From positions 224,642-288,641 of the forward strand of contig OY764155.1 in the NCBI GenBank assembly GCA_963668275.2: a stretch of DNA of 64,000 bases, written 5' to 3'. Positions 2,398-16,942 of the stretch are shown one piece after another (the first letter of the stretch is position 1; every line of letters starts with the position of its first letter). This stretch comes from Dehalococcoidia bacterium. Its GTDB lineage: Bacteria; Chloroflexota; Dehalococcoidia; Lucifugimonadales; UBA1123. Under the pieces are notes generated by a model. That model saw only the letters and a list, made by a program, of their open reading frames with translations, made no database searches and was not told the DNA's origin. Both the position numbers and the translations under genes were made by a program.

Positions 2398-3022
2398 GGA
2401 CGCAAAATGCCGGAAGTGCCGGCGCATAGGCGAGAAACTCTTTCTGAAGGGCGAGCGATGCTACACGCCCCGCTGCGCCGTAGAGCGCAGGCGAAGGCCG
2501 CCCGGAGATTCGATTCCCAGGCGTCGCAGGCCCTCGGACTGGGCGCTTCAGCTTCGCGAGAAGCAGAAGGCGCGCTTCACCTACGGCATTCTCGAACGCC
2601 AGTTCAGGAAGTACTTCGAGATGGCGCGCGGCCGTCCCGGCGTGACCGGCGACAACCTGCTCCAGATACTGGAAACGCGGCTCGACAACGTTATATACAG
2701 GCTTTCGATGGCGGACTCCAGGCAGCAGGGAAGGCAGCTTGTCAACCACGGACACTTTACCGTCAACGGACGACGCATGGACATCCCGTCCTACCTGGTC
2801 GGCCCCGGAGACGTGATCTCGTGGAAGCGCGTCGGATCGAACGGCGCTTCTCCGCCGCAGTTCATACAGGACCTGACCGACGGACTTCCCAAGAGGCCCG
2901 TTCCGCCCTGGCTCAGGCTCGACGTGGCGAACCTGAGCGGCGAAGTGGCCTCCCTGCCGGATATCGCGGAGATCGAAACCGGAATAGACGCCAGGCTGGT
3001 GATCGAGTTCTACTCGAAGTGA
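2384..3022 (+). CDS. rpsD: 30S ribosomal protein S4
   Basis: MARYKDAKCRKCRRIGEKLFLKGERCYTPRC zinc-type S4 N-terminus plus an S4 RNA-binding domain. Confidence 0.96.
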   Translation: MARYKDAKCRKCRRIGEKLFLKGERCYTPRCAVERRRRPPGDSIPRRRRPSDWALQLREKQKARFTYGILERQFRKYFEMARGRPGVTGDNLLQILETRLDNVIYRLSMADSRQQGRQLVNHGHFTVNGRRMDIPSYLVGPGDVISWKRVGSNGASPPQFIQDLTDGLPKRPVPPWLRLDVANLSGEVASLPDIAEIETGIDARLVIEFYSK

Positions 3023-3067
3023 CGCGCTTCAATCGCTGTCACCATGTTTCGTTAAGGAGAGTGGCGG

Positions 3068-4099
3068 ATGGTCTATGACATGACAACATTTATGCCGGAG
3101 ATCCCCTATGAGGAGGAAGAGCCGGTACAGGACCCAAGCATACGGATCGAGGTGGATGAGGACAGATACGGCGAGTTCGTAATCGAGCCGCTGGAGCCCG
3201 GATATGGGGTCACGCTCGGAAATCCGATGCGCCGCATACTCTACAGCGGCCTCGAGGGGACCGCGATAACGTCCGTCAAGATAGAGGGCGTTCAGCATGA
3301 GTACGAGACTATTCCGAACATCAAGGAACAGGTGACTGAAATCCTGCTGAACGTCAAGGCCATCAGGCTGCGGTCCGAGGTTGACAGGCCCGGCAAGCTG
3401 CGCCTGGAAGTCGCGGGCGAGGGGCAGGTGTGCGCCGCCGACATCATGGCCTCCGCCGACTTCGAGGTGGTGAACCCGGACCTCCACCTGGCTACGCTCG
3501 ATTCCACGGAGGCCAAGCTGTCGCTCGAGATGAATGTCGAGCGCGGAAAGGGCTACAAGGAAGCGTTGGAGGACGAAGGTCAGTCCATCGGCGTGCTTCC
3601 GATAGACGCGATATTCACGCCCATCAGGAAGGTGAACTACACCGTGGAGCGCACTCGCGTCGGACAGCGCACCGACTACGAACGGCTGGCCCTCCAGATA
3701 TGGACGGACGGCTCGATCAGGCCCGTCGAGGCGCTCAGGGGCGCTTCCAACATACTGGTCAACCAGTTCTTCCTGTTCACCAACGTGACCGAGGGCGTGC
3801 GGGACAGCCCCGAGGGCGTAACGCTCGTCGCCAATAAACTCCAGGCGGAGCAGTACAACGTGCCCGTTGAGCGGCTGGACCTCAGTTCAAGGACGCTCAA
3901 CTGCCTCAAGCGCGCCGGCATAAACAAGGTCGGCGAGGTGCTGGACCGCAGCAAGGCCGAGCTCATGAACATCAGGAACTTTGGCGAAAAGTCCTACAAC
4001 GAACTGTACGACAAACTGAGACAGAACGACCTGCTGCCTCCGGAAGATGATCCGGAGACGCGGGAAGAGGAAAAGGAAGCTGTCGCCTCCGGCGACTAG
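3068..4099 (+). CDS. rpoA: DNA-directed RNA polymerase subunit alpha
   Basis: 343 aa; GYGVTLGNPMRRILYS NTD motif and C-terminal LDLSSRTLNCLKRAGINKVGEV alpha-CTD HhH. AAGGAG SD upstream. Confidence 0.96.
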   Translation: MVYDMTTFMPEIPYEEEEPVQDPSIRIEVDEDRYGEFVIEPLEPGYGVTLGNPMRRILYSGLEGTAITSVKIEGVQHEYETIPNIKEQVTEILLNVKAIRLRSEVDRPGKLRLEVAGEGQVCAADIMASADFEVVNPDLHLATLDSTEAKLSLEMNVERGKGYKEALEDEGQSIGVLPIDAIFTPIRKVNYTVERTRVGQRTDYERLALQIWTDGSIRPVEALRGASNILVNQFFLFTNVTEGVRDSPEGVTLVANKLQAEQYNVPVERLDLSSRTLNCLKRAGINKVGEVLDRSKAELMNIRNFGEKSYNELYDKLRQNDLLPPEDDPETREEEKEAVASGD

Positions 4100-4467: not shown

Positions 4468-4502
4468 CCCGGCCCGAGAGGCCGAAACAGGAATATACGG
4501 CG

Positions 4503-5264
4503 ATGCGCGTGGCGATGATCGTCGAATACCACGGAAAGGGATACAGCGGATTCCAGTACCAGGAGAACGCTCCCACCGTACAGCAGCAGATTGAAAAAGC
4601 AATACGGTCCCTCACCGGACAGCCGGTCAGGATAAAGGCGGCGGGTCGCACCGACGCGGGCGTTCACGCGCTCGGACAGGTGGTGGCCTTCGATACGGAC
4701 GCCGACTATCCCCCGCTCACCTTCCTGAACGCGCTGAACGCGCGGCTGCCGCGGGACATAGCGGTAAGAGAGGCGTACCGGGCGCGACCGGACTTCGATC
4801 CGAGGCGCGACGCGATAAGCAGACTGTACCGGTACACGCTACTCGTGTCGAAGGTCAGGTCGCCGGTATGGAGACACAACTCTCACCAGGTAAGACCGCC
4901 TCTGGCCCTGGACTCGATGCGCGAGGCGGCCTCGCTGATGGTCGGCGTTCACGATTTCGCCAACTTCGGCGGCCCGCTGGAGCGTCCCGAAGCCAGTACG
5001 GTGCGCCGCGTTTACGGGATAGACATGAGGGTCGACGGCGCTTTCATACAGGTGGAGATCGAGGGAAACGCCTTCCTGCCCAGACAGGTGAGGCGCATGG
5101 TGGGCGCGCTCGCCGACGTGGGCGCCGGAAGATTGAAACTAGAGGATATAAGAAAACAGATTTCGAGAGCGGAGGACGCTCCTGTAACTCGCTCCCTGCC
5201 GCCGCGGGGTTTGTGTTTAGTAAGCGTGAAGTACGCGGATTTTCCTCCGCGACATGAGGAATAG
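4503..5264 (+). CDS. truA: tRNA pseudouridine(38-40) synthase
   Basis: GFQYQ and AAGRTDAGVHALGQVVAF (catalytic Asp motif). Position between rplQ and rplM. Confidence 0.93.
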   Translation: MRVAMIVEYHGKGYSGFQYQENAPTVQQQIEKAIRSLTGQPVRIKAAGRTDAGVHALGQVVAFDTDADYPPLTFLNALNARLPRDIAVREAYRARPDFDPRRDAISRLYRYTLLVSKVRSPVWRHNSHQVRPPLALDSMREAASLMVGVHDFANFGGPLERPEASTVRRVYGIDMRVDGAFIQVEIEGNAFLPRQVRRMVGALADVGAGRLKLEDIRKQISRAEDAPVTRSLPPRGLCLVSVKYADFPPRHEE

Positions 5265-5270
5265 ATCAAA

Positions 5271-5705
5271 ATGGTTACAAGTTCGAAGCCATACGAGACC
5301 AAGTCGTCCGACCTGAACCCGAAGTGGCACGTCGTGGACGCCGAGGGCCAGACGCTCGGAAGGATTGCGTCGCGGATAGCCGCGATCCTGAACGGCAAGC
5401 GCAACCCTATGTACGTGCCGCATCTGCTCACCGGCGACTACGTGGTCGTGCTCAACGCCGACAAGATACGAGTCACCGGAAACAAGATGAGCCAGAAGAT
5501 GTACTACCGGCACAGCGGCTACCATGGCGGCCTTACCGAGCGCACCATGGAGCAGATGATGGCGAGGCACCCTGACCGGGTGATCCGCCAGGCCGTGAAG
5601 GGTATGTTGCCCAAGAACTCGCTGGGCAGAAAGATGCTGAAACGACTAAAGATATACACCGGAACGAGCCATCCGCACGAGGCTCAGGTAGGGAAGGGGA
5701 CGTAA
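5271..5705 (+). CDS. rplM: 50S ribosomal protein L13
   Basis: WHVVDAEGQTLGRIASRIAAILNGK and YYRHSGYHGG are L13 signatures. Confidence 0.96.
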   Translation: MVTSSKPYETKSSDLNPKWHVVDAEGQTLGRIASRIAAILNGKRNPMYVPHLLTGDYVVVLNADKIRVTGNKMSQKMYYRHSGYHGGLTERTMEQMMARHPDRVIRQAVKGMLPKNSLGRKMLKRLKIYTGTSHPHEAQVGKGT

Positions 5706-6110
5706 ATGGTTCAGCAGACCCAGCAGCACTACTACTACGCGATTGGAAAGCGAAAGACCTCGGTTGCCCAGGTCAGGCTCTACACTGATTCGGGCGCGAA
5801 CCAGGTAAACGGCAAGCCCTTGGAAGAATTCTTCCCCTGGGATTCCTGGCAGCAGCTTATTGACCAGCCCATGGACGTGACGGGAACGCACGGCCAGTTC
5901 CGCATCGTCGCCAAGATACGCGGCGGCGGCGTCGTAAGCCAGGCGGGGGCGCTGCGTCACGGAATCGCCCGGGCGCTCCAGGTCGCCGACCCGTCGCTGA
6001 GGTCGTCGCTCAAGAGAGCCGGCCTCCTCACCCGAGACGCCCGCGAGAAGGAGCGCAAGAAGTACGGCCTAGCCCGCGCCCGCAAAGCCAAGCAGTGGAC
6101 GAAGCGCTAG
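5706..6110 (+). CDS. rpsI: 30S ribosomal protein S9
   Basis: YYAIGKRKTSVAQVRL and C-terminal RDAREKERKKYGLARARKAKQWTKR. Confidence 0.96.
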   Translation: MVQQTQQHYYYAIGKRKTSVAQVRLYTDSGANQVNGKPLEEFFPWDSWQQLIDQPMDVTGTHGQFRIVAKIRGGGVVSQAGALRHGIARALQVADPSLRSSLKRAGLLTRDAREKERKKYGLARARKAKQWTKR

Positions 6111-6145
6111 CTCGGTAGCGGTATAGTATATCGTACAATGTAGCC

Positions 6146-6442
6146 ATGTTCACGATTCTACGAAGCGCGACGTTCGACCGTTGGTTAGGCAGGCTGAGGG
6201 ACCGCCATGCAGTGGACAGAATCGTCGCCAGACTGCTGGCAGCCGAAGACGGACATTTCGGAGACGTGGGACCTGTTGGCGGTGGTGTGTCTGAGATGAG
6301 GATTCATTATGGGCCTGGATACCGGATATACTTCATCATGCGAGGATCTGAGTTAATCGTCCTGCTATGTGGCGGAGACAAGGACAGCCAGCGGCGAGAT
6401 GTTGAGCGGGCTAAGAGAATGGCGGCGGAATGGAGGAGCTAA
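6146..6442 (+). CDS. type II toxin, RelE/ParE-superfamily 'addiction module killer' (HigB-like)
   Basis: 98 aa; FDRWLGRLRD...GDVGPVGGGVSEMRIHYGPGYRIYF...LIVLLCGGDKDSQRRDVERAK matches the killer-protein family pattern. Confidence 0.8.
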   Translation: MFTILRSATFDRWLGRLRDRHAVDRIVARLLAAEDGHFGDVGPVGGGVSEMRIHYGPGYRIYFIMRGSELIVLLCGGDKDSQRRDVERAKRMAAEWRS

Positions 6443-6729
6443 TGTCCGAGGAGTATAGAGAGTTCGACGCGTCGGATTATGTCAAGACCGATGAGGATGT
6501 ACGAGGGCTTCTCAGGGCGGCTTGGGATGAGGACATTGGGGATGGGGCAGTGGTCCGCGCTGTCCTTAAGCGAATCGCCCGAATGGAGGACATGGGCGTG
6601 CTCGCCCATGATACCGGGCTAAATGGAGGCGAGGGGTTGTCTCAAGACGGGAATCCTTCGTTGGCGACGTTGCTGAAGGTCACTCGCGCCTTGGGGCTAT
6701 GTCTTGCTCCTGTCGAGAACTCCACATAG
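6430..6729 (+). CDS. type II antitoxin, HTH 'addiction module antidote' (HigA-like)
   Basis: Overlaps the toxin by 13 nt. FDASDYVKTDEDV...GNPSLATLLKVTRALGLCL matches the antidote family. Confidence 0.75.
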   Translation: MEELMSEEYREFDASDYVKTDEDVRGLLRAAWDEDIGDGAVVRAVLKRIARMEDMGVLAHDTGLNGGEGLSQDGNPSLATLLKVTRALGLCLAPVENST

Positions 6730-6777: not shown

Positions 6778-7700
6778 AATTCCTTTTCGGCGACCAGTGC
6801 GCGGTTGTTTCCCATAAGATCGGGTCGGGCGCTCACCGACGCGATGTTAGATATATTCCGGCGCGCGATTTCCACGGCGGCGTCCATATGCTCCGGCATC
6901 AGTTCCACTATTAGCGCACCGCCCTGCGCGAGTATCCCGCCCGCCTGAGTCGCCAGCCTGCGGAAATAGTCCAGGCCGTCAGCGCCGCCGTCCAGGGCGA
7001 CGGTCGGCTCGCGCCGCGCCTCGACCGCCAGTGTGGGTAGCGTTCCACTGGGGATATATGGCGGGTTGGACACGATGATGTCAACCGGCGCGGCTATCGC
7101 GGTCAGCATATCGCCCAGTACGAACTCCACGCCGCCGCCGAGCAGCCTGTCTCGGTTTCTGACTGCCACACCGAGCGCGGACGGGCTGATGTCCACACCG
7201 ACCACCCTGGCTTTCTGCGAACGCGACTCTATCGCCAGGGCTATCGCGCCCGATCCCGTCCCGACATCAACCACCGTCGGCTTTCTCTGGCCTGTGTCCA
7301 TGTTCGCTAGGCGCTCAAGCGTGAGTTCGACTAGCAACTCAGTCTCCTGGCGGGGTATCAGGACGCTCTCGTTCACCTCCAGGTCGAGGCCGTAGAACTC
7401 GCGCCGCCCGACGATGTATGCCAACGGCTCGCCGCCCAGCCTTCTTTCGATAAGCGCGTCAAGCCTGCGCGACTGGGCATTAGTGAGACGATCTTCCGCG
7501 CCATAAACGCGAGGTAGGAACTCCGCCCTCTCCATTCCGACAATATGCCTGAGAAGAACGTCGGCCTCGATTTGCCACTCGGCTATGCCGCCGTCGCGCA
7601 GAGCGGCGCGGACGGATTCAAGGCTTCGGCGCAGGGTCGGGGGACGCTCCGGGCTGCTGTCTCTCATCAGATTGTACGATGGGCAGAAGACAGCCGTCAC
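6762..7700 (-). CDS. prmC: peptide chain release factor N5-glutamine methyltransferase
   Basis: VVDVGTGSGAIALA SAM motif and IVSNPPYIP catalytic NPPY. Overlaps the prfA stop by 4 nt. Confidence 0.9.
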   Translation of the reverse strand: MTAVFCPSYNLMRDSSPERPPTLRRSLESVRAALRDGGIAEWQIEADVLLRHIVGMERAEFLPRVYGAEDRLTNAQSRRLDALIERRLGGEPLAYIVGRREFYGLDLEVNESVLIPRQETELLVELTLERLANMDTGQRKPTVVDVGTGSGAIALAIESRSQKARVVGVDISPSALGVAVRNRDRLLGGGVEFVLGDMLTAIAAPVDIIVSNPPYIPSGTLPTLAVEARREPTVALDGGADGLDYFRRLATQAGGILAQGGALIVELMPEHMDAAVEIARRNISNIASVSARPDLMGNNRALVAEKELSPLP

Positions 7701-8767
7701 GCCTGAACGTTGGCCAGTTTCTGCGTCTGTTCCTCTTCCAGAAGCGCTTCGATTATCTGGTCTATGTCGCCGTCGAGGGACTGGGCGAGGCTGTGGACAG
7801 TGAGGCCGATGCGGTGGTCGGTGATGCGGCTCTGGGGGAAGTTGTACGTCCTGACCCGCTCCGACCTGTCGCCGCTGCCGACCTGGGACCTGCGCGCGTC
7901 GGAGCGTTCGCGCTGCTGTCGCTCGACTTCCTGCGCGTAGAGACGCGAGCGCAGGACGGACATCGCCTTCTCCTTGTTCTTTAGCTGGCTGCGCTCATCC
8001 TGGCACACCGCCACTATGCCTGTCGGCTTGTGCGTGATTCGTATGGCGGTAGCGACCTTCTGAACGTTCTGGCCGCCGTGCCCGGAGGCGTGGAACACGT
8101 CTATCTGGAGGTCTTCGTTGTTGACCTGCACGTCAACCTCTTCGGCCTCGGGCAGCACCGCGACCGTCGCCGCCGATGTGTGTATCCGCCCGCTCGACTC
8201 GGTTACAGGCACGCGCTGCACCCTATGGACGCCACTCTCGTGCTTCAGGCGTGAGTACGCTCCCCTGCCCTTCACCTCGAAGACTATCTCCTTGACTGAG
8301 CCGATGCCCGTCTCGTTGAGGTCAATGACCTCCGTCTTCCAGTTCCTGCGCTGGGCGTACCTGCTGTACATCCTGTACAGGTCGCCGGCGAACAGGCCGG
8401 CCTCGTCTCCGCCCGTCCCGGCGCGTATCTCCACGATCACGTTCTTGTCGTCATTTGGGTCTTTCGGTACAAGCGCGAGCTTCAGCGCCTGCTCGGTAAT
8501 CTCGCGGCGCGTCTCCAGTTCGGTAAGCTCCTCACGCGCGAGTTCGACCAACTCAGGATCGGATTCCTCCCTGAGCATCATCTGGAGGTCGTCCGCCTCG
8601 GACCCGATGGCGCGCAGTTCGCGCGACAGGTCCACCACCTCGCGCAACTGCGCCTGTTCCTTGGCCAGGTCCTGCACGCGGCTGTAATCCACCGCGATCT
8701 CCGGGTCGGCCATCAAACGATCCAACTCTTCGGACCGATCTTCCACCGCTCTCATTCGCTCAAGCAT
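7697..8767 (-). CDS. prfA: peptide chain release factor 1
   Basis: Start reassigned to MLERMRAVEDR (complement of CAT at 8765-8767). RVQRVPVTESSGRIHTSAATVAVLPE (PxT) and HASGHGGQNVQKV (GGQ). The 703-aa track ORF is a spurious N-terminal extension. Confidence 0.95.
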   Translation of the reverse strand: MLERMRAVEDRSEELDRLMADPEIAVDYSRVQDLAKEQAQLREVVDLSRELRAIGSEADDLQMMLREESDPELVELAREELTELETRREITEQALKLALVPKDPNDDKNVIVEIRAGTGGDEAGLFAGDLYRMYSRYAQRRNWKTEVIDLNETGIGSVKEIVFEVKGRGAYSRLKHESGVHRVQRVPVTESSGRIHTSAATVAVLPEAEEVDVQVNNEDLQIDVFHASGHGGQNVQKVATAIRITHKPTGIVAVCQDERSQLKNKEKAMSVLRSRLYAQEVERQQRERSDARRSQVGSGDRSERVRTYNFPQSRITDHRIGLTVHSLAQSLDGDIDQIIEALLEEEQTQKLANVQA

Positions 8768-8911
8768 GATTGCGCTGCCTCCATTTCTGAAATGGTACAG
8801 TACAGAGTAGCCCCGATTCAAAGCCCGCCCATCTTCAATTCTAAATTCACAATTCCACATTCTTAATTCCCGTGATAGACTTCCCCCGAAATCAACCCGA
8901 AGAGGTGAACG

Positions 8912-9802
8912 ATGAGTCGAATCAATAGAGCAATCGAGCTTCTGGAACAGGACCAGCCGATCTACTACACTGGCGGGCATACGGGCGCGAACCTTAGCTA
9001 CGAGGGCGGCAAGGAAATGGCCTCCACCTACGCCGACTACATCAACGTCGGCATGGAACATGGCTCCTTCGATATGCGCGGCCTCGATGACTTCATGCGT
9101 GGCCTGGTGGACGGCGGCCCGACGAACAGCGGCCACCGCACGCCCGCGGTCGTCGTGGAAGTGCCGGTGGACGGCGCGAGCGGTGACGTCATCCGCGCCA
9201 ACGCATGGCAGTTCAGGCAGATACTCGCGCGCGGCGTTCACGGCATCCTGCTCTGCCACGCCGAGACGCCGGACGCGGTGAAGGCGTTCGTGGAGTCCTG
9301 CCGCTACCCGTTCCAGACCGTAGGCGTCGGCAAGGGCCTGGACGTAGGCAGGCGCGGCTCGGCGGGACAGGGTTCCGCCGCTCCCATCTGGGGCGTGTCG
9401 GTGGACGAGTACCTGGACAAGGCCGACCCGTGGCCGCTGAACCCAAACGGCGAGTTGATGCTCGGCCTGAAGATAGAGAACACCCGCGCGCTGCTCAACG
9501 CAGAGGTGACGACCCAGGTTCCGGGCATAGCCTTCACCGAATGGGGCCCGGGCGACATGAGTATGTCCATGGGCTACAAGAACGCTCCGGGCGAACCCTG
9601 GCCCGATGAACTCTGGGAGGCGCGTGAGCGCGTCCGCAAGGCGTGCAAGAACGCCGGAATCGCCTTCCTGGAGGGCGCGACGCCGGACACCATAGCCGCC
9701 AAGATAGACGAAGGCGTCCGGGTCGTGTCCTCCGGCGGCCCGCTGGGCGAAGCCACCGCCAAGGCTGGCCGCGCCCACAGCGGCCGAACGATGCCTGTAT
9801 AA
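8912..9802 (+). CDS. HpcH/HpaI-family aldolase
   Basis: 296 aa; the layout ADYINVGMEHGSFDM ... VVVEVP ... ILARGVHGILLCHAETPD is typical of the HpcH/HpaI aldolase/citrate-lyase fold. Confidence 0.75.
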   Translation: MSRINRAIELLEQDQPIYYTGGHTGANLSYEGGKEMASTYADYINVGMEHGSFDMRGLDDFMRGLVDGGPTNSGHRTPAVVVEVPVDGASGDVIRANAWQFRQILARGVHGILLCHAETPDAVKAFVESCRYPFQTVGVGKGLDVGRRGSAGQGSAAPIWGVSVDEYLDKADPWPLNPNGELMLGLKIENTRALLNAEVTTQVPGIAFTEWGPGDMSMSMGYKNAPGEPWPDELWEARERVRKACKNAGIAFLEGATPDTIAAKIDEGVRVVSSGGPLGEATAKAGRAHSGRTMPV

Positions 9803-9898
9803 CCGCACGATGAAAGCCTGCGTTGGGATACTCCCAATGCAGGCTGAAATTCACCAAGCCGCCTTGCTTGTATTATTCCGACGGGCTATCATGGTTGC

Positions 9899-10189
9899 AT
9901 GAAGATTACATTCACCATATCAGACTTGAAATCGGATCCTCGCTGGGTTCTGGAATACGTGCAGAGAGAAGGCAAGGCTGCGAATATCGCCTGCGATGGG
10001 GAGATCGTCGCGGAGATTCGTCCGGTGGAGCCGAGGAAGTACACCACTGAACAGCGTATGAAAGAGCTACGATATCGGGGCGTCATACGGGGTTCGGGCG
10101 AACCCCGACGACCGTTCAAACCCGGGAAGCCTTCTCCCGGTGCACTGGCGCGGTTCTTAGCTGAACGCGAGGCTGGATACAAAGAGTGA
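9899..10189 (+). CDS. type II antitoxin (Phd/YefM-like N-terminus)
   Basis: 96 aa, overlaps the downstream PIN gene by 4 nt. Confidence 0.7.
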   Translation: MKITFTISDLKSDPRWVLEYVQREGKAANIACDGEIVAEIRPVEPRKYTTEQRMKELRYRGVIRGSGEPRRPFKPGKPSPGALARFLAEREAGYKE

Positions 10190-10566
10190 GCGATGCGTAT
10201 GTTGATACGTCCGCTATTCTGTCCGTCGAATTCAGCGAGCCCGGATACGAGACAGTTATAGAACGACTGGATAGTTTTTCTCGTCTGGTATCATCCAATT
10301 TATTGGAAGCTGAGGTCAGGGCCGGGTTTGCCAGAGATGGGCGAACGTTCGACTCTATGGCCTTATCCAACATCGAATGGGTGTCCGCTGACCGTCCTCT
10401 AGGACCCGAGTTCGAGAGGGTATTGGAGGCTGGCTATCTGCGGGGCGCTGACCTTTGGCACGTTGCTACCGCGTTGCATATATCTGGTGAACCGTCGGAA
10501 GTCACTTTCCTTACTCTGGACCGCCGGCAGGGGGAAGTCGCGGCGGCGCTAGGGTTTCGGGTCTAG
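10186..10566 (+). CDS. vapC: PIN-domain toxin VapC
   Basis: YVDTSAILSV N-terminal acidic motif, LLEAEV, and GADLWHVATAL. 126 aa. Confidence 0.85.
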   Translation: MSDAYVDTSAILSVEFSEPGYETVIERLDSFSRLVSSNLLEAEVRAGFARDGRTFDSMALSNIEWVSADRPLGPEFERVLEAGYLRGADLWHVATALHISGEPSEVTFLTLDRRQGEVAAALGFRV

Positions 10567-10580
10567 CGCGTGTTGTTCTA

Positions 10581-11147
10581 TCACTGCCAGCCACGAGAAC
10601 AGGGTCCGCTTCTGTTGCGCTTGAATTGTCTCCGTCTGTTGTTGGGTGGTGTTCCATATCTTCTTTCGAAGGCTTTGTGTATCCACTGTTGAATGCGAGC
10701 AGGCGCCCACGGGTTCGGCCACTTGTAGATGCGTGCGTATGGATCGTTTCCACCACGATTATCTGCTAACCTCGGAGGCACTAGATGGCGGTGGGGTTGT
10801 TTCCTGTTTGATTTGTAGTTGGGATGATTAGGAAGCAATATGCCCAACAAGCCGCACCTAGAATTTCTCTTAGTATCGCGCAGGCTTGAACCAATCTCCC
10901 AATCCACGTGCTTACGCTGCCAAGTACAGGGACCTATCAGCACAATGGTCACGGTTGCATCACGAATGAATTCATCGCGAATTTTCTGGCGAACCGTATC
11001 TGTCTTGATATTAGTATCATCTATATCATTAACGTTCACCGATTTGTCAATGATACGTCCCTTCATAAGTCTGAGGAATCGCTCTTTGTACTCTCTATCT
11101 TCATCGTGATAGCTGATGAAAACGTTGTGTCTTGGGATTTGAGCCAC
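10581..11147 (-). CDS. ThsB-like TIR domain protein (DUF1863/MTH538 TIR-like)
   Basis: GTG start with a GGAGG SD 6 nt upstream. HNVFISYHDED..., ATVTIVLIGPCTWQRKHVDWEIGSSL and GLLGILLP parallel B. cereus ThsB blocks (VFFSFHYQD / VTCVLIGSQTFNRRWVRYEI / IIGIHI), including the conserved Glu. Confidence 0.85.
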   Translation of the reverse strand: MAQIPRHNVFISYHDEDREYKERFLRLMKGRIIDKSVNVNDIDDTNIKTDTVRQKIRDEFIRDATVTIVLIGPCTWQRKHVDWEIGSSLRDTKRNSRCGLLGILLPNHPNYKSNRKQPHRHLVPPRLADNRGGNDPYARIYKWPNPWAPARIQQWIHKAFERRYGTPPNNRRRQFKRNRSGPCSRGWQ

Positions 11148-11170
11148 AGTTATCCTCCCTCAAGACATAC

Positions 11171-11611
11171 TCATGAAATCACGACCTGCCAGACGATTAT
11201 CACTGTCAACCCAAGCGGAATGTAGAACGGGTAGACCGAAAACGACCGCGCGCTTCTCCAAGCATGGCGCCATACAGAACCGGTCGGCTTCACATTGTAC
11301 AGAGCGGACATGGACAACTGGCCTTTGTGCAGATTTTCGACGAAGGCGTTGTAAGAGTTGCGGAATCTTTGTTCCAGAGAGAGGTAGTAGGTGTCCAGAA
11401 TCAGGAATAGGAGCGCGGGGATCAGGGCGATGAGCGCGTGGTCGGGTTTCTCCGTTCGCGCAACCAAGACAAGAACCGCCGCCACAATAGTTACGCACCA
11501 CACCTTGCAGGAGCGGCTGTTTTCGGCCATACGCTGGATTACGCCCTGCATGATGGTGATGTGGGTCTGAACCGCTTGGGATTCGGCGTTGAGATTTGAG
11601 TTCTCTGCCAT
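11171..11611 (-). CDS. small 3-TM membrane protein, putative effector partner of the TIR gene
   Basis: 146 aa. An amphipathic N-terminus is followed by CVTIVAAVLVLVA, ALIALIPALLFLILDTYYLSL and PFYIPLGLTVIIVWQVVI hydrophobic segments. Its stop is 23 nt from the TIR start, on the same strand. Confidence 0.65.
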   Translation of the reverse strand: MAENSNLNAESQAVQTHITIMQGVIQRMAENSRSCKVWCVTIVAAVLVLVARTEKPDHALIALIPALLFLILDTYYLSLEQRFRNSYNAFVENLHKGQLSMSALYNVKPTGSVWRHAWRSARSFSVYPFYIPLGLTVIIVWQVVIS

Positions 11612-14170: not shown

Positions 14171-14437
14171 TGAAACCTACCCCGGAATTTGTGTGAGCGG
14201 ATAATACAATACCACAATATGAGAATGGACTAAGGACACGGGCAAATGGAAGATGTTGGCGCGCTGACCGGAATGGTCTCTGCCGCCGCCGGGCGTTGCC
14301 CCTGTCCTATGTACAAGAAGGCGCGCGTCGGAAATGCCCGAAATCGGCGAGTTGTGGCAGAGCCGCGCTCTTGATATATTATTTCCTGAACAATTGGCTT
14401 GTTTGCAATCCTTGATTCCCCCGATGGAGGATATTCC

Positions 14438-16942
14438 ATGACGTTCAAGAAGTGTTTCCTGTTAGCGACTACTTTCAGCCTGCTGCTGGTCGCCGTCATA
14501 GCGGTGGCGGGCGCGGATAGAGCCATCCTCGCGGCTCCGAGCGGGCAGGCTGGCCCGTCAACTTCCACCCCCACATACGCGGACTGGGAGAACTACACGG
14601 TGGACTACGTGAACCGCGCTATAGACCTTTACGACCAGCGCGGCCTGGAAGCGGTGCAGGCGTACTACAACAGCGCCGAGAGTCATGTGGGCGAATGGTA
14701 TCTGTTCGCGATAGACGAGAACGACATATACGTCCTTCATGGCCTGTTACCCCACCTCATCGGCACGGACATCAAGCTCGTGGTTGATTCGACCGGATAT
14801 GAACTGGGCAAGGATATAGCCAAGGCGACGGAGGCAGGTCGCTGGATAGAGTACCTGTGGCCGCATCCGGCGACGCTTACCGAGGTTCCGAAGGTGGCCT
14901 ACGCCAAGCGGCATGACGGGTATGTGTTCGCGTCGGGCTACTATCCCGTCCCCGGCGAACCCGCGGCGTACACCCAGGGCTACGTTCAGAAGGCGATAGA
15001 CAAGTACGACAGCGATGGTCTGGACGCGACGGTCTCCTACTACAACAGCCGCGAGAGCCTGGACAATCAGTGGTATCTGCGGCTGTTAAGCGTGGCCGAT
15101 AAGACTGTGCTGGCTGACGGGTTGCCTCCGAACCTGCTGGTGGGCGCGAACGCCACAGACCTGACCGACCCACAAGGGTTCAATTTCGGACAGGCGCTGT
15201 TAGCGGCGCCGGAGGACGGCTACTGGTTCCAGATGTCGTTCTTCAGCAGCCTGGATTCAGGGGTCACCAGGATAAATGTGTGGGCGGTTCGGCGTGACGG
15301 GTACATATTCGCGTCGAGCTACTTCACCGGCGTTATCGCGCCGCCGTCAACGCCGACACCCACTGCCACCGGTACGCCGATGCCCACCCCGACGCCCGAG
15401 CCCATAGACGTGGACGAAGTGATAGCGGAAGACCCGTTCGGCCTCCTCGTCGCGATTCTTAGCAACGCATACGAAAATGGCTACCTGTCCGACACGCTGA
15501 GCGGCCTGCTGGTCAACCTGTTCATTGACAGCTTTATCATGTCGAATACGGGCGAGACCAGAGAAGAGGTCGTGTACAGGATCGCCATCGAAGGGCCGGC
15601 GGCGGACAGGGCCGCGCTGGTCGCGCTGTTCAACGCCACGAACGGCGCGAACTGGGATAAAAACGGCAACTGGCTGACCGACGAGCCGCTTTCCGAATGG
15701 TACGGCATAACCACCGACCTCTCGGGCCGGGTCACGAAGGTGGAGTTGGGCGACAACGATTTGAGGGGCGCGCTGCCCGCCGAACTGGGCAACCTCGCCA
15801 ACCTGACGACTCTGGACCTTCGTCGCAACCGGCTGGACGGCGAGATTCCCCCCGAACTGGGCAACCTCTCCAACCTCACGACTCTGTACCTGTTCGGAAC
15901 CAAAATAAGCGGAGAGATACCGCGCGAGCTTGCCAACCTGACCAATCTGGAAAAGCTTCTGCTCTACTCCAATGACCTGAGCGGCGAGATTCCTGCCTGG
16001 CTGGCGGAGTTGACCAACCTGAAGGTGCTGGACCTCGATGACAACGCCTTTACAGGCGAGATTCCCGCCGAACTGGGCAATCTCACAGAATTGGAAGATC
16101 TGTGGCTGGCGAGAAACAAGCTGAGCGGCCCCATACCGCCTGAATTTGGCGATCTCACAGAACTGAACCTGCTGATGCTCTTCGATAACGAGTTGAGCGG
16201 CTCCATACCGGCGGAACTGGGCAACCTCTCCAAGCTGGAATGGATGTATCTCTCGGATAACAAACTGAGCGGCTCCATACCGGCGGAACTGGGCAATCTC
16301 GCTCAGCTGGAACGGCTTTCTTTCTGGGATAACCAGTTGAGCGGTTCCATACCGGCGGAACTGGGCAATCTCTCCGAACTGGTGTTGCTCTCGATCTCGG
16401 ATAACAAACTGAGCGGATCCATCCCCGCGGAACTGGGCAATCTGCCCAAGCTGGAACGGATGTATCTCTACGATAACGAGTTGACCGGTCCCATACCATA
16501 CGAACTGGGCAGCCTCTCCAGCCTGAAATACCTGTTCCTCAGGAACAACCAGTTGACAGGTTCCATACCGTACGAACTGGGCAGCCTGTCTAAACTGGAG
16601 ATACTGTCCATCAGGAACAACCAGTTGAGCGGCTCCATACCGTACGAACTGGGCAATCTCACGAATCTGGAAGGTCTGACCCTCAGCGATAACGAATTGA
16701 GCGGGAGGATACCGGCGGAACTGGGCAACCTGTCCAACCTGGAGACGCTTTACATCAGCGGCAACCGGTTGACGGGCTGCATACCGTCGGAACTGCGGGA
16801 CGTTTCCGACAACGACTTCGAGGATCTCGACCCGCTTCTTCCGTTCTGTGATTCTGAAGGAACGCCGTCGGGCGCTTCGTCAAACACGGGGCTGTCTGCC
16901 GAAAACCCGATACTGATGCCGGTCAAGGTAATTGGTCCTTAG
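14438..16942 (+). CDS. secreted protein: two Cache-like domains, a Pro/Thr linker, and about 17 plant-type 24-residue LRRs
   Basis: Start moved to MTFKKCFLLATTFSLLLVAVIAVAG (signal peptide, GGAGG SD 7 nt upstream). Repeated LxxLxxLxLxxNxLSGSIPAELGNL units. Confidence 0.85.
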   Translation: MTFKKCFLLATTFSLLLVAVIAVAGADRAILAAPSGQAGPSTSTPTYADWENYTVDYVNRAIDLYDQRGLEAVQAYYNSAESHVGEWYLFAIDENDIYVLHGLLPHLIGTDIKLVVDSTGYELGKDIAKATEAGRWIEYLWPHPATLTEVPKVAYAKRHDGYVFASGYYPVPGEPAAYTQGYVQKAIDKYDSDGLDATVSYYNSRESLDNQWYLRLLSVADKTVLADGLPPNLLVGANATDLTDPQGFNFGQALLAAPEDGYWFQMSFFSSLDSGVTRINVWAVRRDGYIFASSYFTGVIAPPSTPTPTATGTPMPTPTPEPIDVDEVIAEDPFGLLVAILSNAYENGYLSDTLSGLLVNLFIDSFIMSNTGETREEVVYRIAIEGPAADRAALVALFNATNGANWDKNGNWLTDEPLSEWYGITTDLSGRVTKVELGDNDLRGALPAELGNLANLTTLDLRRNRLDGEIPPELGNLSNLTTLYLFGTKISGEIPRELANLTNLEKLLLYSNDLSGEIPAWLAELTNLKVLDLDDNAFTGEIPAELGNLTELEDLWLARNKLSGPIPPEFGDLTELNLLMLFDNELSGSIPAELGNLSKLEWMYLSDNKLSGSIPAELGNLAQLERLSFWDNQLSGSIPAELGNLSELVLLSISDNKLSGSIPAELGNLPKLERMYLYDNELTGPIPYELGSLSSLKYLFLRNNQLTGSIPYELGSLSKLEILSIRNNQLSGSIPYELGNLTNLEGLTLSDNELSGRIPAELGNLSNLETLYISGNRLTGCIPSELRDVSDNDFEDLDPLLPFCDSEGTPSGASSNTGLSAENPILMPVKVIGP

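Follow-up and report, generated by a model that had tools for sequence, protein, structure and literature searches.

The 64,000-nucleotide stretch of a Dehalococcoidia chromosome analysed here (contig OY764155.1; in the following, the window) carries two adjoining genes, thsF and thsB, which encode a 146 aa protein with three transmembrane (TM) helices and a 188 aa TIR protein. As judged by homology, this thsF-thsB pair very probably constitutes a type V Thoeris anti-phage system. The architecture, a TIR protein combined with a bare three-TM protein, is already catalogued as PDC-M50 and has been validated experimentally as type V Thoeris. The window pair is a new Dehalococcoidia member of this group, and the experimental evidence on type V comes from Bacillus representatives. 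By homology with characterised Thoeris systems, the window copy would be expected to confer an anti-phage phenotype. An earlier interpretation made from the nucleotide letters alone (the sequence-only reading) had proposed a Thoeris-like defence pair with a membrane-acting partner. The PADLOC and type V matches described below support this proposal, and an effector role of the partner is likely. The same reading had regarded the architecture as undescribed; here it has been overtaken by the PDC-M50 models, which match both genes, and by the type V preprint with its closely related TIR protein.

In the PADLOC database (PADLOC-DB v2.0.0, 2023), the 146 aa protein is matched over its full length by PDC-M50A (PDLC04686, E = 3.2e-29) and, in addition, by the profiles 04684, 04685 and 04687. 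The best PADLOC match of the TIR protein is PDC-M50B (PDLC04688, E = 4.7e-11; residues 7-163 against positions 3-159 of a profile of 162), and several generic ThsB models rank behind it. PDC systems are unpublished candidates of PADLOC (PMC11811056), and no paper mentioning PDC-M50 by name was found in the literature searched. Likewise, this literature contained nothing on ThsF, type V Thoeris or DUF2270 beyond one preprint (Yirmiya et al., bioRxiv 10.64898/2025.12.03.692087, 3 Dec 2025; in the following Yirmiya et al., 2025). In a scan of defence islands containing TIRs, its authors verified seven Thoeris types that were new. In type V, a ThsB TIR is combined with a protein with three membrane helices, for which the label DUF2270 was used and the new name ThsF introduced. 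Of three type V operons put to the test, two provided B. subtilis with protection. In the case of the B. thuringiensis DAR 81934 system, the TIR made the cyclic ADP-ribose (cADPR) isomer 3'cADPR upon infection, external 3'cADPR was toxic to system-carrying cells, and the Tad1 sponge abolished defence. An AlphaFold 3 model of ThsF yielded a homo-heptameric, channel-like ring with positively charged pockets between the protomers (Yirmiya et al., 2025). Table S1 of the preprint contains a TIR protein (IMG 2620551309, 'DUF2270 - Type V') that can be aligned with the window TIR along 155 residues at 53.5% identity (E = 3e-60), and the TVTIVLIGPCTWQRKHVDWEI block is identical in both. Other classes of TIR proteins encoded beside homologues of the membrane protein match further 'DUF2270 - Type V' entries with E-values down to 1e-97.

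The 188 aa protein matches the Pfam family PF08937 (ThsB_TIR) with E = 1.4e-16 and 61 bits at a gathering cut-off of 21. The blocks VFISYHDED, TVTIVLIGPCTWQRKHVDWEI and LLGILLP, on which its assignment as a ThsB-like TIR had originally been based, are all present in the translation. Its AlphaFold2 (AF2) model has a predicted local distance difference test (pLDDT) score of 84.8, and the best Foldseek matches of this model are 8fz9 (a B. cereus TIR), 9b7d (ThsB-Tad3), 8wcf (EcThsB) and 8v6t. At the level of the predicted structure, the TIR fold is confirmed. E84, located in the motif DWEI, aligns with the glutamate of 'RYEI' in ThsB of B. cereus MSX-D12 and falls into the same column in ThsBs of types V, VI, VIII and IX. 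We take this column to be that of the catalytic glutamate (E85 in BcThsB). The sequence-only reading had named the absence of this residue as a reason to abandon the assignment; E84 is present and is kept in 54 of 55 syntenic TIR homologues. Homologues of the TIR protein form at least 3,165 clusters at 90% identity. Past the TIR fold, the clade has a C-terminal tail (10581-10680; residues ~156-188) with the pattern ...GTPPNN.R.QF.RNRSG.CS.GWQ. Model confidence is lower in this tail, and N178, G186 and W187 are invariant among 42 homologues. The tail could be a sensor or an interaction element. Two proteins of 312-321 aa (P0419 and P0441) share 67-68% identity with the window TIR and have an additional domain at the N-terminus, which is annotated as PF18163. 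This composition suggests a fusion of the same TIR clade to another signalling module.

The partner of the TIR protein had been described as a 146 aa protein encoded 23 nt upstream on the same strand, with an amphipathic N-terminus and three hydrophobic helices, and coordinates, hydropathy and hydrophobic moment all agree with this description. According to Kyte-Doolittle analysis, three hydrophobic segments are centred at ~41-46, 66-70 and 135-137. The N-terminal helix is moderately amphipathic with a hydrophobic moment of ~0.36-0.39. In the AF2 model (pLDDT 94.1), helices 12-53 and 56-95 form a long helical hairpin that is followed by helix 113-121, which is short, and by the TM helix 127-145 at the C-terminus. 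The segment comprising residues 79-125 contains seven K/R and two D/E, i.e. a net charge of +5. Applied to this segment, the positive-inside rule points to a topology of N-in/C-out, in which the two conserved polar stretches would be cytoplasmic. These stretches provide the family signature, Q22..R27-M-A-x-N31-S32...K36-x-W38 and D73..E80..R84. Throughout 102 diverse representatives of the family, R27, K36 and E80 do not vary, and the model places them at the ends of the helical hairpin beside the membrane. This placement would be compatible with a nucleotide-binding pocket. By analogy with the ThsF model, R27, K36 and the charge of segment 79-125 would also be compatible with a ring-shaped homo-oligomer that has positively charged pockets between its protomers.

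Neither Pfam (E ≤ 10) nor NCBIfam scans returned a match for the 146 aa protein. SIR2, SLOG and Macro domains are absent, as had been noted before, and SLATT is absent, too. A search of PDB sequences with the 102-sequence family profile found no match, and Foldseek against the PDB with the high-confidence model found nothing significant (best E = 0.53). The suggestion that the partner might be SLATT-like found no support in the sequence: none of the SLATT_1-6 families matched it, and one of the 102 relatives showed a weak match to SLATT_6 (E = 0.0077).

The relationship to ThsF could be traced through small proteins encoded beside relatives of validated ThsBs. On a B. thuringiensis contig (L090), a gene for a TIR protein 75% identical to the TIR domain of the validated ThsB of Bacillus sp. 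1NLA3E is followed after 1 nt by a gene for a 135 aa protein. Similarly, a Priestia plasmid (L085) encodes a TIR with 67% identity to the validated 1NLA3E ThsB and then a 135 aa protein, and a Terribacillus plasmid (L088) encodes a TIR with 47% identity to the validated ThsB of DAR 81934 and then a 136 aa protein. All three small proteins match PDC-M50A or the family hidden Markov model (HMM) built from A2, with E-values from 1e-29 to 2e-52 (best 1.8e-52). BLASTP with the window protein detects them at 31-36% identity (E = 9e-15 for L090, 1e-15 for L085 and 2e-18 for L088). With hhalign, profile A2 and the Priestia protein gave 99.5% (E = 9e-23), and the Chloroflexota alignment A1 and an alignment of 80 Bacillales sequences (A3) gave 99.8% (E = 5.8e-28, 127 columns). 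Both branches have one signature leading into TM1 (Q-x4-R-M-A-x-N-S-x3-K-x-W) and a second one leading out of TM2 (L-D-x-[YF]-[YF]-L-x2-E-x2-F-R-x2-Y). By the proxy of these neighbours of validated ThsB relatives, the window protein appears to be homologous to ThsF. At two other loci (L084 and L086), TIRs similar to the DAR 81934 ThsB have no ThsF gene nearby and lie in type I- or type II-like contexts. This means, the effector cannot be predicted from TIR similarity alone.

The family of the membrane protein is large. A word-seeded search yielded at least 1,411 clusters at 90% identity, and an exhaustive profile search 4,408 clusters at 50% identity (E ≤ 1e-3). For the analysis of gene neighbourhoods, one genome per GTDB species was scanned; 375 stretches encode the membrane protein, and the best 80 of them were analysed over 10 kb each. 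These best 80 loci originate mostly from metagenome-assembled genomes (MAGs) of Dehalococcoidia/Chloroflexota, several of them named Candidatus Spongiisociaceae or obtained from sponge bins. Gemmatimonadota, Latescibacterota, Opitutales and Desulfobacterales contribute a few. In 68 of the 80 loci, a co-oriented TIR gene directly adjoins the membrane gene. It is located downstream, as in the window, in 31 cases, upstream in 8 and on both sides in 29. The adjacency to TIR genes is, as had been anticipated, consistent, and it recurs on plasmids of Vibrio, Nostoc, Arthrobacter, Priestia and Terribacillus, i.e. also in other phyla.

The 29 loci with TIR genes on both sides contain TIR-thsF-TIR triads at ~4480-6050 of each locus (L007, L008, L010, L019, L022, L030, L031, L033, L035, L042, L044, L048, L052, L058, L060, L066, L067, L070, L071, L076 and others); the window has the two-gene form only. 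In the triads, the downstream TIR is of the window type, and the upstream TIR belongs to one of two other classes. The first class comprises ~129 aa ('LNIFVSFEFDKDKDL...') and the second ~165 aa ('RRTFFSFHYKPDNWRA...'); the latter matches a type V TIR of Table S1 with E down to 1e-97. Multi-TIR variants of type V are not discussed in the accessible parts of the preprint (Yirmiya et al., 2025). Further arrangements were found. L015 contains the pair in two tandem copies (2824-3857 and 5001-6034). Plasmid p1 of Vibrio chagasii (L081) carries two thsF-TIR pairs 1.5 kb apart (5001-6613 and 8081-9212), one of the window subfamily and the other Bacillus-like, with a Dcm methyltransferase and nucleotide-binding proteins nearby; this region looks like a small Thoeris island. 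On the Nostoc plasmid, a TIR gene lies beside the membrane gene. On the Arthrobacter plasmid pYA7-1b (L083, 3944-5442), a gene for a 203 aa ThsF-family protein is convergent with a type XI-like pair of HIT-domain and TIR genes, and the gene ends overlap. Here, one TIR may possibly serve two effectors.

Both genes of the window are under purifying selection. The ratio of nonsynonymous to synonymous substitution rates (dN/dS) amounts to 0.16 for the TIR gene and 0.125 for the TM gene in comparison with the related MAG L001, and to 0.143 and 0.134, respectively, in comparison with L002. Values of 0.13-0.16 and the large numbers of homologue clusters argue that the window open reading frames (ORFs) are real genes and not chance ORFs. 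A SLATT-like protein, a housekeeping membrane protein and a chance adjacency were considered as well; these readings were rejected on the grounds of the synteny in 68 of 80 loci, the lack of a SLATT signal and the purifying selection.

Several observations weigh against the assignment to type V. Among the three tested type V systems, one failed to defend E. coli, and adding 3'cADPR from outside did not set off the 1NLA3E system (Yirmiya et al., 2025). Furthermore, the link to the tested ThsFs runs via relatives of their partner TIRs and via the labels in Table S1, and effector labels are, according to the authors, representative-based and noisy (Yirmiya et al., 2025). At E ≤ 10, PF10028, the Pfam family of DUF2270, gives no match to the window protein. 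In scans of 31, 102 and 80 family members, its matches were all sub-threshold, with 8 of the 102 representatives (best 1.2e-3) and 8 of the 80 Bacillales sequences (best 2.4e-3). Finally, the membrane gene is present without a TIR gene within 10 kb in 12 of the 80 loci (L014, L025, L032, L040, L043, L056, L061, L065, L069, L075, L077 and L078), so the membrane protein may also function or persist alone. In these 12 loci the thsF-like gene is intact, and in L032 an apparent C-terminal remnant of a TIR ('PLPRRYADNLGG') is found just downstream of it. In such loci, either the system is decaying or the effector is served by a TIR from another place in the genome. As to PF10028, the Bacillus-branch effectors encoded beside relatives of validated ThsBs fail this model as well. 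Because of this failure and the noise of the labels, PF10028 does not discriminate members of the type V effector family from non-members. By its profile matches, the window protein is to be placed in the ThsF/PDC-M50A family and outside PF10028.

Beyond gene structure, the two families, the catalytic residue, the three-TM topology, synteny and selection, the mechanism proposed for the window pair is modelled on the Bacillus systems. The ThsB TIR would sense phage infection and convert NAD+ into a cADPR isomer via the catalytic Glu84. This isomer would bind to a conserved, positively charged cytoplasmic site of ThsF, in which R27 and K36 are invariant and the neighbouring, likewise invariant E80 is acidic. 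ThsF would be assembled in the membrane as a ring-shaped homo-oligomer. Upon activation, it would disrupt membrane integrity, and growth would stop or the cell would die before phages are released (abortive infection). For the window ThsF, we infer both oligomerisation and membrane disruption by analogy. Likewise by analogy, namely with type V of B. thuringiensis, the signal would be 3'cADPR, which is the weakest step of the mechanism.

Possible, although judged the less probable case, is a ThsB-ThsF pair that operates with a different messenger, i.e. 2'cADPR, canonical cADPR or an undescribed ADP-ribose derivative. The window TIR belongs to TIR cluster 2741407742 of the preprint, and the type V TIRs that were tested fall into other clusters. 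Further members of cluster 2741407742 are a type VI ThsB that has been validated (39.9% identical) and partners of type VIII (49.7% identical). Three of the tested type VI ThsBs, which the accessible text does not name, made 2'cADPR on infection (Yirmiya et al., 2025). The failure of external 3'cADPR to trigger the 1NLA3E system points in the same direction, as does the occurrence of one ThsF subfamily with at least three TIR classes. On the other hand, the sole type V system with an established signal uses 3'cADPR, and the product is not known to follow TIR clade membership. The TIR clade shared with types VI and VIII and the triads that mix TIR classes also give rise to the tentative idea that ThsF of the Chloroflexota branch might be triggered by a messenger different from 3'cADPR, or by several. 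If this were true, the pair would lend itself naturally to studies of the way in which TIR-derived signals are read by a minimal membrane effector.

It is improbable that the pair works without a diffusible signal, with the TIR as an NAD+-depleting effector and the membrane protein as its sensor or anchor, as in CBASS, Pycsar and SPARTA-type systems. Many bacterial TIRs are NADase effectors (Yirmiya et al., 2025), and the tight coupling of the two genes as well as the conserved C-terminal tail of the TIR clade would suit such an arrangement. However, the window TIR belongs to the ThsB family, of which the characterised members produce signals. Addition of 3'cADPR alone sickens cells that carry the validated type V system, and Tad1 abolishes defence (Yirmiya et al., 2025). 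Moreover, different TIR classes are exchangeable beside the same ThsF. With this exchangeability, a small-molecule interface fits better than a protein-protein interface.

The history of the locus bears on the question of whether the pair is still in use. The pair and a neighbouring PIN-toxin module have an equivalent arrangement at the identical site in three related MAGs (L001-L003), with 80-90% nucleotide identity. Since the site is shared at this degree of identity, the insertion in this lineage is old and vertically inherited and not a recent acquisition. The GC content is 0.476 in the TIR gene, 0.542 in the TM gene and ~0.555 in vapBC, compared to 0.635-0.66 in the flanking genes. Of 76 related loci, 70 likewise have a cassette of lower GC content, and by its composition the cassette DNA looks horizontally derived. 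The sequence-only reading had taken the pair for AT-rich, acquired DNA; the lower GC content is real and acquisition plausible, but the insertion is old and occupies the same site in related MAGs. L001 retains the Thoeris pair without vapC at the site (~6030-6042), and the TIR gene of L003 is truncated (5465-5710).

These losses, together with the TIR remnant of L032 and the 12 orphan thsF loci, could be read as signs of an inactive relic or of a pair that this lineage has recruited for a role outside defence, and its vertically inherited position between housekeeping genes, at a site occupied in L001-L003, would agree with this. Such a fate is, though, very improbable for the window copy: neither ORF is shortened, every conserved motif is present, dN/dS amounts to 0.125-0.16, and Shine-Dalgarno sequence and spacing are intact. 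An undescribed Thoeris-like architecture, with a bare and possibly SLATT-like membrane protein unrelated to described effectors, can practically be dismissed, because the membrane protein has, despite the lack of a Pfam or NCBIfam family, of a solved structure detectable by sequence and of a significant structural neighbour, homology to effectors beside relatives of validated ThsBs and no SLATT signal, and because PDC-M50A/B match both genes and the type V preprint has the same architecture.

The features of the locus are compiled in Table 1.

Table 1. Coordinates of the thsF-thsB pair and of the adjoining features in the window
Feature	Coordinates	Strand	Remarks
thsF-like effector gene (146 aa, three-TM)	11171..11611	-	ATG start; ORF list, PADLOC PDC-M50A
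Spacer, 23 nt	11148..11170	-	read from sequence: ...TGAGTATGTCTTGAGGGAGGATAACTGTG; GGAGG Shine-Dalgarno for TIR gene
thsB (188 aa ThsB-type TIR)	10581..11147	-	GTG start; PF08937, PADLOC PDC-M50B
GC-rich hairpin, 8-bp stem	10546..10569	+	between convergent stop codons of vapC and thsB; consensus match only
PIN-toxin module, two genes	9899..10566	+	VapC-like 10186-10566; 96 aa partner 9899-10189

The effector gene is the first gene of the pair and the TIR gene the second. The spacer carries the Shine-Dalgarno sequence of the TIR gene, which implies co-transcription. A scan of the region for sigma-70 promoters yielded 0 sites, with a consensus that is uninformative for Chloroflexota. The hairpin may act as a shared bidirectional terminator of vapC and thsB; as evidence for a terminator it is weak, because the number of such sites does not exceed the expectation from shuffled sequences. 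The PIN domain of the adjoining toxin was identified as PF01850 (E = 1.2e-10). The gene for the 96 aa protein overlaps the toxin gene by 4 nt, and its product has no match to an antitoxin family at E ≤ 1. From the VapBC module postulated earlier next to the pair, the PIN toxin could be confirmed, but the 96 aa protein is named antitoxin by position and the 4-nt overlap only. The module is adjacent to the Thoeris pair and is treated here as its neighbour. Farther out, one flank contains prmC, prfA and a gene for an HpcH-family aldolase, and the other two family-III CoA-transferase genes and a gene for a protein with Cache domains and leucine-rich repeats. The flanks of the pair harbour neither a SIR2-SLOG ThsA nor a TM-Macro effector gene, and they do not form a multi-system defence island.

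Two of the neighbouring ORFs deserve a comment. The protein with Cache domains (847 aa; 14399-16942, plus strand) starts with an N-terminal signal/TM segment and has leucine-rich repeats in a long array. Sponge symbionts typically possess eukaryote-like repeat proteins, and related MAGs carry names that mark them as sponge symbionts. In the 703 aa ORF at 7697-9808 (minus strand), PrfA with its PCRF and RF-1 domains corresponds to the C-terminal ~357 aa only (7697-8770). The N-terminal extension is a high-GC ORF artefact that overlaps the HpcH-aldolase gene on the opposite strand.

The window adds an intact type V Thoeris candidate under purifying selection to an uncultured, apparently sponge-associated lineage of Dehalococcoidia. 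The effector family, with at least 4,400 clusters at 50% identity, is very large and not detected by Pfam or NCBIfam models, so standard annotation designates its members as hypothetical. For annotation, such genes ought to be labelled thsF and thsB. The residual novelty lies in the signal of this TIR clade, in the size of an effector family that lacks annotation and in the frequency of TIR-thsF-TIR triads among relatives. This raises the question of which cADPR isomer this TIR clade produces and how it is read by a 146 aa protein that lacks a globular domain.

A comparison with known systems places the window pair as follows. Type I Thoeris, composed of ThsB and a SIR2-SLOG ThsA, likewise has a ThsB-type TIR with the catalytic glutamate, and its messenger 3'cADPR is also used by the validated type V system of B. 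thuringiensis. In contrast, the window lacks SIR2/SLOG, and killing is predicted to proceed by membrane damage instead of NAD+ depletion. Type II Thoeris (ThsB and a TM-Macro effector with the signal His-ADPR) also combines a TIR synthase with a membrane-spanning, cell-killing effector; the window effector, however, has ~146 aa and neither a Macro nor another globular ligand-binding domain, and the TIR clade is a different one. The SLATT effectors of type VII Thoeris and CBASS are small membrane effectors, too, which are thought to oligomerise and to breach the membrane upon binding of a nucleotide signal. SLATT is a two-TM module, whereas the window protein has three TM helices, another signature and no match to SLATT. 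With PDC-M50, the window pair shares the two-gene composition, and both HMMs are matched over their full length; PDC-M50 itself is a bioinformatic candidate for which no mechanism has been described. Type V Thoeris likewise is a two-gene operon in which a ThsB-type TIR is combined with a ~135-150 aa protein with three membrane helices, and the effector family is shared. The differences lie in the effector, which is only ~31-36% identical to the Bacillus-branch proteins, and in the TIR, whose cluster differs from those of the three tested ThsBs. In addition, the TIR gene precedes the effector gene in Bacillus, whereas in the window, which stems from an uncultured Dehalococcoidia host, the effector gene comes first and is followed by the TIR gene.

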